A stretch of 64,000 bases of DNA from Candidatus Puniceispirillum sp. (GTDB lineage Bacteria; Pseudomonadota; Alphaproteobacteria; Caedimonadales; UBA1908), in the NCBI GenBank assembly GCA_013822015.1, contig PNJU01000006.1, positions 7,231 through 71,230 on the forward strand. Reading direction: 5' to 3'. How positions within the stretch are numbered: the first letter of the stretch is position 1; each line of letters opens with the position of its first letter. This document shows, in pieces, positions 8,253-32,161 of the stretch. The notes beneath the pieces are model-generated. The model worked only from the letters and a program-made list of their open reading frames with translations. It was not told the origin of the DNA and searched no databases. The translations under genes were made by a program, and so were the position numbers.

Positions 8253-9764
8253 GTGTCACAGTCAATTCCGGAATTTGGAAAGGTTCGCGCGTTCCTTTGG
8301 CCAATCCGCTCTAGTGAGGCAAAGAAGTTCTTGCCCATTAGTCTCATCATGTTTTTTACCATCTTCAATTACACCGTTCTTCGTAACTCCAAAGACGCCT
8401 TTATTATGACGGAGGCGGGGGCTGAAGTTCTTCCGTTCCTCAAGGGCGGTGTGGTGCTTCCGTGCTCACTTCTTTTGGTGGCAGCCTATACAAAACTTGC
8501 AAATAACCTCTCCCGAGAACGCCTCTACTATGTGGTTGTCCTCTTTTTCTTGAGCTTCTTTGCCCTCTTTGGAGCGATTTTACACCCCTACCGTGATGCG
8601 GTTCAAATGTCAGGCGAGACCATTGCCCACTTCAAGACCGCTTACCCCCACCTCCAACACATCTTTCCACTTTTTGGGGTGTGGATTTACACGGCCTTTT
8701 ATGTCTTTGCTGAGCTCTGGGGCGCGGTTGTCTTAAACCTGTCCTTTTGGCAGTTCGCCAATGAGGTGACACGCACCGTTGAGGCCAAGCGCTTTTACTC
8801 CATGTTCGGTTTTATCGGCCACTTGGCCCTGATTGCGGCGGGATATACCGTGGGCGAAAACTGTAAATTCGATGAGGGCACCATGTCCTGTGAGGGGTAT
8901 GTGCGAGCAACCGTGACCGTGGTGCTCATCGCGGGCGTGATGATGCTGAGCCTTTATTACTGGCTGCACCGGGCTGTTTTGACGGATCCAAAGTACTACG
9001 AAGGTGCGGGGCAGCTTGTGAAGGGTGAGTCGCGTAAGTTAAAGCTGAGCTTGATGCAAAGCATTCGCTACATCCTGTCATCTCCGTACCTCGGCCTTAT
9101 CGCGACCCTTGTCTTCAGCTACGCCTTTACCATGAACCTGCTTGGCATCATGTGGAAGAAGCAGCTGTCTATTCAGTATCCCACCACAAGTGCATACGCA
9201 TCCTTCATGGGCAGCTTTTCCATCTATACGGGCATCACCACCGTGACGGTGATCTTCTTCTTCAAGGGAATTGTGAGCCGTTTTGGTTGGCGCGCGGGGG
9301 CCCTGGCCACACCCATTATTCTGTTTATCACCGCCGTGGCCTTCTTCTCGTTCCTGTTCTTTAAAGCGCAGCTGACTCCCTTCATGTCCCTCATGGGCAC
9401 AACGCCACTGATGATGGCGGTGCTTGTCAGTACGCTGCAGCAGCTCCTGAGCAAAAGTGCCAAGTACTCTCTTTTTGATCCCACAAAGGAAATGGCCTAC
9501 ATTCCCCTGGATCAAGAGCTTAAAATCAAAGGCAAGGCTGCAGTTGATGTGACCGTTCACCAGTTTGGAAAAGCCGCCGGAGGATACGTCTCCGGCCTGC
9601 TTCTTGTGGTGCTAGCGGCGGCTGACCTGATGGTTATTGCCCCGTATCTTGCGGTGGTAATTCTGGTGGCGATTGTTCTTTGGTTTGCGGCTGTGAAGGC
9701 CTTGAACAAGATGTATCACATTCAGTTGGCGAAGCTGGATCCTGGGGCACCTGCTCGGGCGTAA
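8253..9764 (+). CDS. tlc: Nucleotide transporter of the ATP/ADP translocase (TLC/NTT) family
   Basis: FNYTVLRNSKD, FYVFAELWG, EAKRFY, KSAKYSLFDPTKEMAYIPLD, KGKAAVDV; about 12 TM; substrate specificity not determinable by eye. Confidence 0.95.
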   Translation: MSQSIPEFGKVRAFLWPIRSSEAKKFLPISLIMFFTIFNYTVLRNSKDAFIMTEAGAEVLPFLKGGVVLPCSLLLVAAYTKLANNLSRERLYYVVVLFFLSFFALFGAILHPYRDAVQMSGETIAHFKTAYPHLQHIFPLFGVWIYTAFYVFAELWGAVVLNLSFWQFANEVTRTVEAKRFYSMFGFIGHLALIAAGYTVGENCKFDEGTMSCEGYVRATVTVVLIAGVMMLSLYYWLHRAVLTDPKYYEGAGQLVKGESRKLKLSLMQSIRYILSSPYLGLIATLVFSYAFTMNLLGIMWKKQLSIQYPTTSAYASFMGSFSIYTGITTVTVIFFFKGIVSRFGWRAGALATPIILFITAVAFFSFLFFKAQLTPFMSLMGTTPLMMAVLVSTLQQLLSKSAKYSLFDPTKEMAYIPLDQELKIKGKAAVDVTVHQFGKAAGGYVSGLLLVVLAAADLMVIAPYLAVVILVAIVLWFAAVKALNKMYHIQLAKLDPGAPARA

Positions 9765-27490: not shown

Positions 27491-28033
27491 TTACTGCTTT
27501 AGCAGAGAGTTTTTGTATGACCTTATGGCAAAGTAAACGGGTTTATTACCCCGGTCCGCGGTGTGCGTGCGGTACAAACAGATGATCCCAGGATGGTCGG
27601 TATTGATACCAGACATATTCATGCGCTCAAGGTGCAGATCGTGTAAGAGGTGCCCTTCGAAGCGTTCAGGTGAGGCGCTGTCAAGGCTCAGCGCTGCAGG
27701 ATCAAACAAACGGTATATGACGCGCAACTCTTTGACTTGGCCTGTAACCTCACTTTTCACAAGGGTGCTATTTGCGTGCCAAAAAGAAAGCTGCTGGGTG
27801 ATGAAGCGCACCTCCTTTTGTGTTGCCTGGGCGAGGTTTTGTCTATGGAGATAGGCTGCCTGCCCGCGCAGGCTTGTCAGTATGTGAGGCGTTAAGGTCT
27901 GTGGACACACAGCCTTCTTAAACATTTGAAGAAGCACCTTGCCCTGGTCTTCCCCTTGCCTGGCACTCATTGCCTGAGCTTGTGAGGGGGACATGAGGCA
28001 CAAACTCAGACAAACACACCCAAGACGCATCAT
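27491..28033 (-). CDS. Exported hypothetical protein
   Basis: Signal peptide MMRLGCVCLSLCLMSPSQAQA; 59 bp downstream of the ABC ATPase gene, same strand. Confidence 0.65.
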   Translation of the reverse strand: MMRLGCVCLSLCLMSPSQAQAMSARQGEDQGKVLLQMFKKAVCPQTLTPHILTSLRGQAAYLHRQNLAQATQKEVRFITQQLSFWHANSTLVKSEVTGQVKELRVIYRLFDPAALSLDSASPERFEGHLLHDLHLERMNMSGINTDHPGIICLYRTHTADRGNKPVYFAIRSYKNSLLKQ

Positions 28034-28092: not shown

Positions 28093-28758
28093 TTAAAGGC
28101 TCTCCCCGTAATAAGGCTTTAGAACCTGGATGGCATCAGGTGTGGCGCGCGGGTCCATGTCGAGGGCAATTTTTCCTTGGGCAAGGACCACGATGCGCGT
28201 GGCGATTTGGGTGAGAAAATCCAGATCGTGGGAGGCAATGATGAGGGAAATGCCTTCGCTGTGCACGTGCCGCAACAGATCCACAACGTCTCCAATGGTG
28301 GCGACATCTAATCCTGAGGTGGGCTCGTCACACAAAAGAAAATCCGGCTTCATCATCAGGCACCGCGCAAGGGCCACCCGCTGCTTTTGTCCACCCGAAA
28401 GCTGAGAGGGCAGGGCGTCTTCTTTCCCGGCAAGGCCAAGCTTTGCTAAAAGGGCTTTGGCGGCGGCGCTGTGATCCCTCTCCTTGTCTTGGCAGGAGGG
28501 CGCAAACACAAGGTTTTCAAGTACACTCATATGGGGGAAGAGCTGAAAATCCTGAAACATAAAGCCTCGGGTGTAAGGCGCCGTCAAAGTGCCCGATGAG
28601 AGGGGCTCGAGCCCCTGAAGGCACCGCAAAAGCGTTGATTTTCCGCCTCCTGAGGGACCCGCAAGGCCAATGATGTGCCCAGGCTCAATGGTCAGATCGA
28701 TGGATTTGAGCACATCGTCGGCGCCGTAATTCTTGGTTGCATTTTTTAGGATCATCAT
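28093..28758 (-). CDS. Polar amino-acid ABC transporter ATPase (GlnQ/ArtP-like)
   Basis: GPSGGGKST, FQDFQLFPH, LSGGQKQRVALAR, DEPTSGLD. Confidence 0.93.
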   Translation of the reverse strand: MMILKNATKNYGADDVLKSIDLTIEPGHIIGLAGPSGGGKSTLLRCLQGLEPLSSGTLTAPYTRGFMFQDFQLFPHMSVLENLVFAPSCQDKERDHSAAAKALLAKLGLAGKEDALPSQLSGGQKQRVALARCLMMKPDFLLCDEPTSGLDVATIGDVVDLLRHVHSEGISLIIASHDLDFLTQIATRIVVLAQGKIALDMDPRATPDAIQVLKPYYGESL

Positions 28759-29408
28759 TTTTTGAAACTTCTTTCAATTTTTTCGCTGGCATACTCGATG
28801 CTGAGGATCAAGACGTAGTAATAGAGACCCGCCACACACAGGGGCGCAAAGTACGTAAATTGCTCCGCCGCTACCAACTGCGCCCGGCGCATCACATCCA
28901 TGCCGCCAATGGTGGCCACAAGGGCCGTTTCTTTGAGGAGCGTAATGAGCTCGCTGACCATGGCGGGAAAGCAGGCGCGCAAGACTTGGGGGGCAATGAT
29001 GTGCCGCCACATGTGGGCGGCCGGAATGCCAAGGGTTCTGGCTGCCTCAAACTGTCCTTGAGGTACGCTCATGAGTCCCGCGCGCAAAATCTCGCTGGTG
29101 TAGGCAGCGCTATTGAGTCCCAAGGTGAGGGCACCCGCAAAGGCCGCGTCAATGGGAATACCAATGAGGCTTGGGAGTGCAAAATACACAAAGCTCAGTT
29201 GCAAAATCACAGGCGTGCCGCGAATGATGGACACAAAGGCACGGATGGGGTAAACGCCGTGGCCGCTGTAACGTGCCCAGCACAAAAGGCTCCCCAGCAC
29301 CAGTCCCGTGGTGAGCCCCGCGCCCAGTAACGCGAGGGTCAGCCCCATGCCCTTGGCAATATAAAAGAGCCAGGGCCCTTTTGCGATGAGTGCGTTTAGC
29401 CAATCCAT
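28755..29408 (-). CDS. Polar amino-acid ABC transporter permease (GlnP/ArtQ-like)
   Basis: IIRGTPVILQL, LNSAAYTSEILRAG, GQFEAA. Confidence 0.94.
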   Translation of the reverse strand: MDWLNALIAKGPWLFYIAKGMGLTLALLGAGLTTGLVLGSLLCWARYSGHGVYPIRAFVSIIRGTPVILQLSFVYFALPSLIGIPIDAAFAGALTLGLNSAAYTSEILRAGLMSVPQGQFEAARTLGIPAAHMWRHIIAPQVLRACFPAMVSELITLLKETALVATIGGMDVMRRAQLVAAEQFTYFAPLCVAGLYYYVLILSIEYASEKIERSFKK

Positions 29409-30121
29409 TTTGCAACAAGCTCCTTGAGGACGCCCTTTTCTTTCAGCCGCGCCATCGCTTGGGTCAGCTCTTTTGTGAGTTTCGAGCCCTTCTTGGTTGC
29501 AATGGCGTACCCCGAACCTGTCTCGCCCACAAGGGCGTGGGTCAGCTCAGGATTGACCTTTTGAAAGGCGCTTGCCTGGGCTGTGTCCACAAGGGCTGCG
29601 TCACACTGGCGTGCCTTCACAGCCTCAACGGCTTGGTTCGTGGTGTCAAAGGCCAAAAGCGTTGCCGACGGCACATGTTTGGCGAGCCACATTTGGGTGG
29701 TCGCGCCCATCTGACACGCAACCCGCTTGCCCTCCAGGTCCTTGGCGTTTGCGATCTGCGCGCTTTGGAGACTGAGGGTACTGATGGTCTCGTCATAGTA
29801 AGGGGGCGTGAAGTCAAAGGCGGCGGCCCGCTCCGGCGTTGCCGTAATGGTGGAAATGGCGGCGTCTACTTTGCCGGCGGAGAGGCTTGCCAGAATCGCC
29901 CCAAAGCTCATATTTTCAAAACGCACCTCTTTGCCAAGCTCCTTGGCAAGTTCTTTGGCAATCTCAATATCCAGGCCCGTAAGCACACCATTTTCCACAT
30001 ACTCAAAGGGAGGGTAGTCCGCGCATGTGCCAAAGGTCAGCGTTTCTTTTTTGTCCTCGTCCTGGCAACCTGCCAACACAAGGCTTGAAGCCAGAAGGGC
30101 TTTTATCCACTTTTTATGCAT
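29396..30121 (-). CDS. Polar amino-acid binding lipoprotein (ArtJ-like, probably arginine)
   Basis: Lipobox LVLAG|C; ADYPPFE, GLDIEIA, FDFTPPYY; arginine specificity inferred from adjacent argR and ARG boxes. Confidence 0.9.
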   Translation of the reverse strand: MHKKWIKALLASSLVLAGCQDEDKKETLTFGTCADYPPFEYVENGVLTGLDIEIAKELAKELGKEVRFENMSFGAILASLSAGKVDAAISTITATPERAAAFDFTPPYYDETISTLSLQSAQIANAKDLEGKRVACQMGATTQMWLAKHVPSATLLAFDTTNQAVEAVKARQCDAALVDTAQASAFQKVNPELTHALVGETGSGYAIATKKGSKLTKELTQAMARLKEKGVLKELVAKWIG

Positions 30122-30151
30122 ATATTCACCTATTTTGAATTTGTATTCATA
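30113..30151. promoter_or_regulatory. Tandem ARG boxes overlapping the artJ-like start codon
   Basis: TGAAT-TTGT-ATTCA at 30136-30149 (consensus) and degenerate TATGC-ATAT-ATTCA at 30115-30128, 21-bp period (18+3). Confidence 0.8.
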
Positions 30152-30197
30152 TTCTCTTTCTTACATAGTGTCTGACACCTTGCTTTGTCAAGGTAAA

Positions 30198-30235
30198 AGT
30201 GAATATATTTGCGCATTGTTGAATATGTATTCAGA
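30198..30235. promoter_or_regulatory. Tandem ARG boxes upstream of argR (autoregulation)
   Basis: TGAAT-ATGT-ATTCA at 30220-30233 (consensus) and TGAAT-ATAT-TTGCG at 30200-30213, 20-bp period. Confidence 0.8.
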
Positions 30236-30243
30236 GTGTTCAA

Positions 30244-30687
30244 ATGGCAAGAGATGAAGATTTCCCAAAGGTCCTGCGCGAGATTATCGGCAAAGAAGAG
30301 GTGCGAGAGCAGTCTCAGCTCCAACATCTTTTAGAGGCGCGCGGGTACGCGCTTCCCCAAGCGACCCTGTCCCGACGCTTAAAAAAGCTTGGCATTGTGA
30401 AGATTGCGGGCGTGTATCAATCCTTGGAGGTGCCGCGCGCGTCGGTGCCCCACATCCTATCCATTCAGGAGTCGGCGTTTGGATTTTTTGTGCTCCATAC
30501 CATGCCCGGCAGCGCCAACGCCTTAGCGTATGCCATTGATCAGCAGTATGTTGAGGTAGCGGGAGGAAGTGCCGCCATTTTAGGCACCATCGCCGGCGAT
30601 GATACGGTGCTTGTCTTGATCAAAGGCCCCGGGGATGTGGAGCATGCCCGCGCGCTTTTGGAGGCGATGAAGGTGTCAGGCTCGTAA
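30244..30687 (+). CDS. argR: Arginine repressor ArgR
   Basis: wHTH QSQLQHLLEARGYALPQATLSRRLKKLGIVK; C-domain HTMPGSANALAYAID and ILGTIAGDDTVLV. Confidence 0.95.
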   Translation: MARDEDFPKVLREIIGKEEVREQSQLQHLLEARGYALPQATLSRRLKKLGIVKIAGVYQSLEVPRASVPHILSIQESAFGFFVLHTMPGSANALAYAIDQQYVEVAGGSAAILGTIAGDDTVLVLIKGPGDVEHARALLEAMKVSGS

Positions 30688-30752: not shown

Positions 30753-31415
30753 ATGTTGGTGCGAGCATGCGTGAAGGTTCTTTCTTTTTTGGCTGTGGTG
30801 CCCTCGGTTATGGCGTCAAACACCTATATTTGTACCATGAACCGCCTCGAGGTCCGCTCTCAAGGGGGGGGGTCAAAACAACCCACCTATCATTCAAAGG
30901 CGGATGTTTTGGTTGTAAACCTAAGGGATAGAGCGGTGAACGTCGCACCAGTGTTTGAGTCAAAGGACGCGTGGACAAAGGCGCACGCTCGGTACAATGA
31001 GATTGCACAGGCTGTCAAGGCCCAGATAGCTTCCCAGTGGTGTGACAGCAGCAGTGAAATCGCAGCCCAGCATCTCTTTGCGACACAAGATGACATTTGG
31101 GCCGGCAGGCCCGCCCCTGAATCTGTGACCTTTCAGGCAAATATCTTTCATGCTGAAACAGACGTAACCCTTCACGCGCAAAATCTTTCTCTGAAAAGCA
31201 CGTTTTGCACCTCACATGCGGGTGATATTACGCTTCGCGCGCCCGATGAATCGTCCGGTTGGCTGCGCGCCATCACCTTTAAGTCTTCTGCCTCCGGCCA
31301 GCGGCCCTTTGATATGATGTTTCAAGGAACTGTCTCATTTACGCCACCAAGCATCGAAAACCTGGTTGTGGTGGGGGCAAGCAAGGTCACCTTTGAGGTG
31401 GATCCCCATGATTAA
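30753..31415 (+). CDS. Exported hypothetical protein, tandem paralog 1 of 5
   Basis: AAAGGAG RBS; signal ...PSVMA|SN; conserved C-domain GWLRAITF..RPFDMMFQGTVSF..GASKVTF. Confidence 0.85.
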   Translation: MLVRACVKVLSFLAVVPSVMASNTYICTMNRLEVRSQGGGSKQPTYHSKADVLVVNLRDRAVNVAPVFESKDAWTKAHARYNEIAQAVKAQIASQWCDSSSEIAAQHLFATQDDIWAGRPAPESVTFQANIFHAETDVTLHAQNLSLKSTFCTSHAGDITLRAPDESSGWLRAITFKSSASGQRPFDMMFQGTVSFTPPSIENLVVVGASKVTFEVDPHD

Positions 31416-31498
31416 GCTTTGCTGCGTGAGGGGTCCGCGCGAGGGTGGATTTCAAAAAAACCGCTTTATTACAAGTGGTTAGGAAGAGTGAGGTTTAC

Positions 31499-32161
31499 AT
31501 GTTTGCGCGTATACGGATTTTTATGCTTGCTTGCCTGGTGGCAATGCCGCCCCTTTTGGCATCGGATGAAAAACTTATTTTCACGCTCAATGACCACGAG
31601 GTGCGCGCAAAAATCAATCGTAATGGCGTGCTGGGCGTTGGGGTGGATGAGAACCATGTTGTTTTGGACCTTAAAGACTGTGCAGGGATACTTGGTGGTT
31701 ATTCTCCGGAAACCAAAGAAAGACGCTGGGATGAAGCGCACGCATTATACACAGATATTTCAACGTGTTCCCCCGCGCATAACAATACCCGTTGGAGTCG
31801 TAACAGCCATAAGCTCATGTGGCAAAATCTTGTTGCAACGGGCGGCCCTATAAAACTAGGTGATGCGGAGCATTTTGACGCGCACAACGATATCCTTTGT
31901 GCCCGGGGGGATATTACATTAAGCGCACAAACCCTTTGCCTGAAAAACACATTTTGTACCTCGGACACCGGCCAGATTACGCTCAATGCGCCTGAAGGCT
32001 GCAGCGGTTGGTTGCGTAGCCTCACCTTTGAGCGCGCACCAGGTGTGAGACCCTTTGACATGATGTTTGATGGAACAGTTTGCTTTAATCCGCCCACCAT
32101 CGAAACATTGCTTGCTCTAGGCGCAAATAAGGTCACCTTTAAGGTTCAGCGTCTTAACTGA
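31499..32161 (+). CDS. Exported hypothetical protein, tandem paralog 2 of 5
   Basis: GAGGT RBS before ATG 31499; signal ...PPLLA|SDE; GWLRSLTF..RPFDMMFDG..GANKVTF. Confidence 0.85.
   Translation: MFARIRIFMLACLVAMPPLLASDEKLIFTLNDHEVRAKINRNGVLGVGVDENHVVLDLKDCAGILGGYSPETKERRWDEAHALYTDISTCSPAHNNTRWSRNSHKLMWQNLVATGGPIKLGDAEHFDAHNDILCARGDITLSAQTLCLKNTFCTSDTGQITLNAPEGCSGWLRSLTFERAPGVRPFDMMFDGTVCFNPPTIETLLALGANKVTFKVQRLN

Follow-up and report, generated by a model that had tools for sequence, protein, structure and literature searches.

The four-gene cassette and its products

We analyzed one 64,000-nucleotide stretch of DNA from Candidatus Puniceispirillum sp. (contig PNJU01000006.1; the whole stretch is referred to as the window), in which one argR gene lies back to back with three genes of an ATP-binding cassette (ABC) importer. 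The importer genes encode one artJ-like substrate-binding lipoprotein, one permease and one ATPase; they are separated from argR by an intergenic gap of 122 bp (30122–30243), which contains two tandem pairs of candidate ArgR operators (ARG boxes). Together, the four genes and the gap form a putative switch for arginine uptake (Table 1). The original prediction for this DNA had described argR as divergent from artJ/glnP/glnQ-like genes, with two tandem operator pairs of 21- and 20-bp period in the gap, one of them over the artJ start codon. Its coordinates and gene calls are correct by the open reading frame (ORF) listing and agree with the Pfam scores, and both operator pairs can be read in the sequence.

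Table 1. Genes, ARG boxes and promoter elements of the cassette (positions are those of the window)
Feature	Position	Strand	Description
ATPase gene, glnQ/artP-like	28093..28758	-	221 aa; encoded last in the importer operon; PF00005, 108 bits
Permease gene, polar-amino-acid ABC type	28755..29408	-	217 aa; single membrane subunit; PF00528, 69 bits
artJ-like substrate-binding lipoprotein gene	29396..30121	-	241 aa; PF00497 (SBP_bac_3), 123 bits
ARG box J1, TATGCATATATTCA	30115-30128		degenerate; overlaps artJ start codon and ribosome-binding site
ARG box J2, TGAATTTGTATTCA	30136-30149		exact core; 19.1 bits
Putative artJ -10	30162..30168	-	TATGTA (18-nt spacer) or CTATGT (17-nt spacer); weak; placed by distance to TTGACA
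Back-to-back -35 hexamers	30180..30191		TTGCTT (+, argR) abutting TGTCAA, which is TTGACA on the - strand (artJ)
ARG box R1, TGAATATATTTGCG	30200-30213		13.0 bits; holds the predicted argR -10, TATATT
ARG box R2, TGAATATGTATTCA	30220-30233		exact core; 20.1 bits; 10 nt before argR ATG
argR, divergent ArgR/AhrC-family repressor gene	30244..30687	+	147 aa; PF01316, 48 bits; PF02863, 52 bits

The permease gene overlaps the ATPase gene by 4 nt and the artJ-like gene by 13 nt, therefore the three importer genes form one operon. All three importer proteins, as well as both domains of ArgR, exceed the Pfam cut-offs. The permease also scores 71 bits with TIGR01726 (HEQRo_perm_3TM), for which the cut-off is 42.2; with one SBP_bac_3 protein, one permease of the 3-TM type and one ABC ATPase encoded in a single operon, the system is a polar amino acid ABC importer (PAAT). 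None of the importer proteins attains an NCBIfam equivalog cut-off; the best NCBIfam model for the ATPase is GlnQ (188 bits, under the equivalog cut-off). The signal peptide of the binding protein ends with VLAGC, a lipoprotein signal, and its gene is preceded by the ribosome-binding site AGGTGA, located 5 nt ahead of the ATG.

ArgR is of two-domain architecture. The N-terminal winged-helix DNA-binding domain (PF01316; 48.2 bits, cut-off 27) covers residues 9–55, and it is followed by the C-terminal oligomerisation and arginine-binding domain (PF02863; 52.3 bits, cut-off 25). S43-R44 aligns with the DNA-reading pair S47-R48 of Escherichia coli ArgR, and G118-D119-D120-T121 aligns with the E. 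coli GDDT motif; the serine-arginine pair and the longer GTIAGDDT are invariant across 16 homologues. The nearest PDB sequences are AhrC (1f9n) and Mycobacterium tuberculosis ArgR (3ere). In the ArgR tree, the proteins from Legionellaceae, from Oligoflexales-labelled genomes and from alphaproteobacterial symbionts group together, and the ArgR encoded here is a member of this divergent subfamily. Some variation is found within the genus: the ArgR of the G000 sublineage has lost both an extension at the N-terminus and the FPYL tail at the C-terminus, which the other members have.

Two tandem pairs of ARG boxes

The four boxes are imperfect palindromes of the TGAAT-N4-ATTCA core type, arranged in tandem at 20–21 bp (J1–J2, 21 bp; R1–R2, 20 bp) and overlapping the predicted promoter positions, all of which is characteristic of ARG boxes. 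The artJ start codon, which reads CAT at 30119–30121, is inside box J1. A genome-wide scan for the exact core, suggested in the original prediction, returned J2 and R2 as the sole sites in the 1,978,797-bp (1.98 Mb) genome. In the 64-kb window, J2 and R2 are also the only sites with one mismatch or less.

To rank the boxes, we used one weight matrix built solely from the boxes of other lineages (Legionellaceae, G001/G002, G084 and G196). Under this matrix, R2 and J2 are the first and second best sites of the whole genome, and R1 is in the top 35. Two tandem pairs (20–22 bp spacing, summed score of at least 20 bits) were found genome-wide, and both are located in this gap; R1 plus R2 (33.1 bits) is the best pair of the genome, the other pair scores 23.5 bits. 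The next-best tandem pairs score 17.5 bits or less, they are A-rich and mostly within coding sequence.

Sequence conservation points in the same direction as the ranking. We compared the gap with that of L126, a metagenomic relative whose ArgR is 84% identical; dS between the two is 1.2–1.5, and synonymous sites are almost saturated. The four boxes and the central TTGCTnTGTCAAGG are kept in L126, whereas the spacers between the boxes have diverged. Box J1 is identical in G003 and L126, and the Legionellaceae counterpart of J1 is a strong box abutting the artJ ATG. The boxes are more than chance. The genes are conserved as well; relative to L126, dN/dS is 0.08–0.13 across all four cassette genes, with ArgR at the lower end (0.08) and the ATPase at the upper end (0.13).

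In the genome-wide matrix scan, no tandem pair of at least 20 bits was found outside the gap, and no box was found near the two amino-acid-related loci described below, one rocF-rocD-like gene pair and two APC-family antiporter genes. Since the genome has no other credible operator, the regulon appears to be limited to the four genes of this locus. The third best single site of the genome (18.3 bits) is TGAAAAAAAATTCA at C5:8238, outside the window; it lies 56 nt upstream of a gene for an 834-aa exported tetratricopeptide-repeat protein with a YoeB-like C-terminus. As this site has no partner box, we regard it as probably a chance match.

Predicted arrangement of the promoters

The two −35 hexamers lie back to back between the box pairs. 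The combined pattern, TTGnnn(n)TGTCAA, was found in 9 of the 14 module loci, with alpha-, gamma- and 'delta' lineages all represented, and the element is conserved in L126 though its flanks diverge. In every lineage that has the element TTGnnnTGTCAA, box R1 starts 19–20 nt past its TTG. This fixed distance places TATAAT or TATATT within R1 at a spacer of 17–18 nt. In the window the predicted argR −10 is TATATT at 30204–30209, with an 18-nt spacer; in Legionella, G001/G002 and G196, the ortholog of R1 reads TGAATATAATT[TC]CA and its embedded −10 is a perfect TATAAT. On the artJ side, the −10 is placed by its distance to TTGACA, and G001/G002 carry TACATA at the corresponding position. Transcription is predicted to begin near 30216 (+) for argR and near 30155 (−) for artJ.

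Arginine metabolism and lifestyle of the host genome

The single tmRNA of the genome is of the permuted alphaproteobacterial type (aragorn; RF01849 alpha_tmRNA, 208 bits), in line with the class assigned by the original prediction. The genome encodes three TLC-family nucleotide translocases, versus none in 14 control genomes. Two of them are full-length (602 and 522 bits) and the third is weaker; one full-length copy is located in the window at 8253–9764 (+), and contig C5 is a further location. Possession of three such translocases fits life inside a host.

The original prediction had pointed to the arg biosynthesis genes as a check, and none was found. Using E. coli and Legionella queries against the whole genome, we did not detect argA, argB, argC, argG, argI/F, carA, speA, adiA, astA or astB; the genome also has no arginine deiminase gene (arcA), and the argH and carB queries gave weak partial matches only. 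Two apparent matches were rejected, the argE-like one being DapE and the argD-like one an ornithine aminotransferase (TIGR01885, 503 bits, over the cut-off). At C2:212789–214918, outside the window, one arginase-family gene (TIGR01229, 182 bits, below the cut-off) adjoins a TIGR01885 ornithine-oxo-acid transaminase gene. In this genome, which lacks arginine synthesis, the two are predicted to form a catabolic pair for arginine resembling rocF-rocD. There are also genes for two APC-family basic-amino-acid antiporters. Judged from its gene content, the organism is intracellular and auxotrophic for arginine, and it is also able to break arginine down.

Distribution of ArgR and of the cassette

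ArgR has been reported to be conserved in Gammaproteobacteria and absent from other proteobacterial classes (PMC5343134). We searched an even sample of the class Alphaproteobacteria, 401 genomes from 307 genera, for the C-terminal domain of ArgR and found it in 12 genomes and 9 genera, which upholds the earlier statement that ArgR is uncommon in this class. Within the order, ArgR is confined to this genus, one of 11, and is encoded by 4 of the 23 genomes; the sister genus in the same family is without it.

Named relatives were drawn from a GTIAGDDT pattern listing, which is a biased sample of at least 600 matches. Among the named matches listed, Legionella qingyii, L. erythra and a Legionellaceae metagenome-assembled genome (MAG) come closest, with ArgR identities of 45–49%. 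A separate set of 63 ArgR homologues (E <= 1e-5) includes matches labelled Oligoflexales, Deltaproteobacteria and Pigmentibacter. The cassette itself is also present in one 'Deltaproteobacteria' MAG, in one Joint Genome Institute (JGI) metagenome contig and in four other alphaproteobacterial families (G415, G084/G254, G131 and G196). The ATPase is 52–56% identical to its Legionellaceae orthologue and 65–66% to those of G001/G002. The promoter-operator architecture, with back-to-back −35 hexamers and a −10 inside a box, is common to the alpha, gamma and 'delta' versions. The versions differ downstream of the transporter: argG follows it in L005, L006, L121 and L125, and is followed by argH in L121 and L125, but no argG or argH follows it in the Legionellaceae MAG L007 or in any alphaproteobacterial carrier.

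TLC translocases are present in all seven module-positive genomes of the class sample, versus 62 of the 401 genomes overall (Fisher p = 1.6e-6 by genome and 1e-4 by genus). One orphan argR of the Legionella type was also noticed, L102 (G169:C14, 7525–7974); it adjoins polysaccharide-export ABC genes, not an amino-acid importer, and its carrier, the alphaproteobacterium G169, has no TLC translocase in the class sample.

Phylogeny of the cassette

A tree built from ArgR alone (106 sequences) had too little resolution to position the genus, so a concatenate of the four cassette proteins (820 columns) was used instead. In this tree the four copies from the genus form one clade (support 100/100) and the Legionellaceae copies form another (98/97), while the backbone that links the genus, G196, G415, Legionellaceae and two other lineages is a polytomy. 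Between G000 and G001, the identity is 65% for GlnQ, 62% for the permease, 46% for the binding protein and 50% for ArgR; with MutS at 64%, the divergence of the module within the genus seems comparable to the housekeeping baseline. The neighbourhoods of the module in G000/G003 and in G001/G002 are unrelated. For all four proteins, the G000/G003/L126 branch has about three times the length of the G001/G002 branch (1.0 versus 0.35 changes per site). Misbinning of the contig was considered and rejected; the identity of MutS, encoded on the same contig, falls as relatedness decreases, which is the expected pattern, and the G001 module shares a 976-kb contig with MutS.

Comparison with known ArgR systems

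The closest counterpart is the Legionella locus of argR (lpg0490) and its transporter (lpg0491 onward), which has the same divergent four-gene layout. Among the matches listed, the identities are 45–49% for ArgR, 38–42% for the binding protein, 54–60% for the permease and 52–56% for the ATPase. The control region is also alike, with TTGnnnTGTCAA, an R1 that carries the −10, R2, and a box directly next to the start codon of artJ, and both organisms are protist-dwelling. Based on these similarities, we judge the cassette, including its cis-elements, to be homologous to the Legionella argR/ABC-transporter locus. PMC3920079 and PMC7566939 describe Legionella ArgR as working with arginine as co-repressor, and the argR neighbour lpg0491 as induced about 4-fold in amoebae. 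The two systems also differ. In L. qingyii and L. erythra, argG follows the transporter, whereas it does so neither here nor in other alphaproteobacterial carriers. Different from L. pneumophila, where ArgR affects Icm/Dot and effector genes according to PMC3920079 and PMC12341379, no second operator is present in this genome.

The ArgR-glnPQ system of Chlamydia pneumoniae is similar in biology: the organism is obligate intracellular, it does not synthesize arginine, and its ArgR acts with a minimal regulon, repressing glnPQ, a putative arginine transporter, via tandem ARG boxes when arginine is sensed (PMC2175317). However, no Chlamydia protein is among the 63 ArgR homologues (E <= 1e-5), which places its ArgR in a different subclade, and the published operator is of the TGCATA type (PMC2175317) instead of TGAAT-N4-ATTCA.

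With the E. coli regulon (arg genes, artPIQM, artJ and argR), the cassette shares the TGAAT-N4-ATTCA core, the tandem period of about 21 bp and the conserved serine-arginine reading pair and GDDT motif of ArgR; autorepression of argR and repressed arginine ABC transport are also features of E. coli (PMC5343134), and both are expected here. The ArgR proteins are 32% identical only. Gammaproteobacterial ArgR regulons, including that of E. coli, comprise about 20 genes on average and are centred on biosynthesis (PMC5343134), in contrast to the four genes and no biosynthesis found here, and the transporter here consists of one permease and one lipoprotein binding protein. Bacillus subtilis AhrC (1f9n), the nearest in sequence among solved structures, matches the two-domain architecture over residues 11–137 (E = 6e-13), but it is distant in sequence and controls both biosynthetic and catabolic operons.

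Proposed circuit and alternative explanations

We propose that the cassette is a self-contained arginine-responsive uptake switch, in which L-arginine presumably acts as the co-repressor of ArgR. At high cytoplasmic L-arginine, arginine-loaded ArgR hexamers would occupy both box pairs. On R1 and R2, ArgR would cover the −10 element of the argR promoter together with its start region, resulting in autorepression; on J2 and J1, situated after the artJ promoter and ahead of the start codon, it would block initiation or promoter escape of artJ-glnP-glnQ. When arginine drops, both units would be derepressed and high-affinity uptake would resume, and the imported arginine may feed protein synthesis as well as catabolism through the arginase/ornithine-aminotransferase route. 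This is a clean example of a known regulatory circuit, the mechanism itself is not new. The original prediction had viewed ArgR as an arginine sensor of the host compartment. This is plausible if narrowed to uptake feedback, but as a broader claim it overreaches, since no other credible operator is present in the genome; for the same reason, the circuit looks like local uptake feedback with autoregulation, of the kind known from Chlamydia, rather than a global or virulence regulon of the Legionella style.

Taking all lines of evidence together, an arginine-corepressed, autoregulated uptake switch with a regulon of four genes, acquired horizontally by the ancestor of the genus, is the probable explanation. 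Several points weigh against it, and they concern the regulator, the artJ side, the substrate and the origin. For the regulator, ArgR scores 89.3 bits with TIGR01529 (argR_whole) and does not reach the equivalog cut-off of 130.45. For the artJ side, box J1 alone is weak (4.4 bits under the matrix), the candidate −10, TATGTA, is poor, and a consensus promoter scan called neither the argR nor the artJ promoter. With a weak J1 and a poor, uncalled −10, repression on the artJ side would be the least secure step of the mechanism.

For the substrate, the arginine, glutamine and cystine models score about alike on the binding protein, and all are below their cut-offs. The best NCBIfam model is TIGR01096 (Lys/Arg/Orn binding), with 155 bits against a cut-off of 256, and the ArtJ_Ecoli model gives 113 bits against 510. 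The nearest PDB sequences are AncQR, a reconstructed Gln/Arg-binding ancestor, followed by Thermotoga ArgBP, Geobacillus ArtJ and STM4351, so that arginine and glutamine binders are both among its neighbours. In addition, argG and argH, which convert citrulline to arginine, follow the transporter genes in non-alphaproteobacterial versions. As described in one review (PMC3920079), L. pneumophila makes arginine from ornithine or citrulline, and its transporter mutant requires arginine in defined medium and is rescued when arginine is added, which hints that the Legionella orthologue may import a precursor instead of arginine. The regulator and the operators could therefore be as described here while the importer carries ornithine, citrulline, lysine or glutamine. 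We consider this unlikely. The genome is without argG, a real argH and ornithine carbamoyltransferase, so an imported precursor could not be converted to arginine and would be useless in this genome; ArgR feedback makes most sense if the imported molecule raises the arginine pool; and among the top structural relatives, Thermotoga ArgBP, Geobacillus ArtJ and STM4351 are proven to bind arginine. Based on the conserved linkage to ArgR and the absence of argG and argH, arginine is the probable substrate of the importer.

For the origin, an approximately unbiased (AU) test did not reject a single clade of all nine alphaproteobacterial modules (p = 0.19), and the G+C content of the module (0.555) equals that of the genome, leaving no compositional trace of recent transfer. 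Both observations would also fit a module that is ancestral in Alphaproteobacteria, inherited vertically and lost nearly everywhere, the Legionellaceae copy being transferred or an ancient orthologue. The monophyly of the genus copies, whose divergence tracks that of housekeeping genes (GlnQ 65% versus MutS 64%, G000–G001), is in keeping with such descent too. We find it rather unlikely all the same: it would have to account for an ArgR confined to 9 of the 307 sampled genera in the class and a single one of 11 in the order, with the sister genus lacking it, for Legionellaceae modules that are nearer to the module of the window than those of the alphaproteobacteria G084 and G131, for the unrelated genomic contexts in G000/G003 and G001/G002, and for the confinement of the module to translocase-bearing lineages in five separate families. 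Horizontal acquisition, as proposed in the original prediction, is thus likely. As the single alphaproteobacterial clade was not rejected, the argument for transfer rests mainly on the patchy distribution and not on the tree. Most likely, the cassette was acquired once by the genus ancestor from the gene pool of protist-associated intracellular bacteria, and inherited vertically afterwards.

With regard to the sign of regulation, ArgR might act as an arginine-dependent activator, switching the importer on at high host arginine and so supplying catabolism by arginase and ornithine aminotransferase. General statements that ArgR/AhrC activate catabolic operons elsewhere (PMC2175317 and PMC12341379) and the presence of rocF- and rocD-like genes in the genome speak for this possibility, which we regard as very unlikely, because the boxes extend over the −10 and the start region of argR and lie downstream of the sole plausible artJ −35, positions typical of repression, no box is present upstream of rocF-rocD, and the homologous Legionella and Chlamydia systems repress. 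Finally, the reading of the boxes as AT-rich palindromes that arose by chance in a likewise AT-rich promoter region, with ArgR as a decaying remnant, is effectively refuted: the bare counts would allow it (two exact matches in the genome versus about 1.3 expected, as estimated from base frequencies, and window matches with up to one mismatch equal to the shuffled mean of 2), but the two exact sites share a single 122-bp gap beside argR, rank first and second under an independent matrix, form the sole tandem pairs and are kept where the spacers diverge, and every carrier has intact genes, with dN/dS of about 0.1.

Genes flanking the cassette

Directly 3′ of argR, and on the same strand, the window contains five tandem paralogues (30753–34347, +) of 218–240 residues in size, all with signal peptides. 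They are 32–39% identical to each other and share one conserved C-terminal half (...GWLRALTFE..RPFDMMFQGTVSF...). The family is restricted to this species cluster and close relatives, always beside argR, and it diverges fast; the amino acid identity to the L126 copy is 36%, versus 80–93% for flanking genes, and dN/dS is 0.23. The AlphaFold model for the family is all-beta and confident, with a predicted local distance difference test (pLDDT) value of 84.5 and a predicted TM score (pTM) of 0.81; a fold search against PDB gave no significant match.

A terminator search found no intrinsic terminator for argR. With the paralogues on the same strand, read-through from argR would couple their expression to the host arginine supply. 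One could then imagine the cassette as a portable 'arginine gauge' among unrelated protist-dwelling bacteria (Legionellaceae, several translocase-bearing alphaproteobacterial families and 'Deltaproteobacteria'/Oligoflexales-labelled lineages), wired here to host interaction through read-through into 30753–34347. This idea is speculative and more likely wrong than right by a wide measure; if true, it would represent an independently evolved counterpart of the ArgR control over Legionella effectors.

On the other side of the cassette, 59 nt 3′ of glnQ and on the same strand, one orphan ORF (27491–28033, −) encodes a 180-aa protein with a signal peptide and no Pfam match. In a relative where the flanking genes reach 80–93% identity, the identity of this ORF is 47%. 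It may be co-transcribed with the importer operon.

Biological implications

ArgR was found in about 3% of the sampled alphaproteobacterial genomes, which corrects the working assumption that ArgR-type control does not exist in this class. In the class sample, the Legionella-type cassette is confined to lineages with nucleotide translocases, a hallmark of obligate intracellular life, and the locus marks arginine as one nutrient that these symbionts must draw from the host. It is probably a clear case in which a regulator, its target operon and the cis-regulatory DNA moved jointly between classes that share the protist host niche. Being a compact switch, with one operator region and one effector, it offers a handle for studying nutrient sensing in uncultured symbionts.

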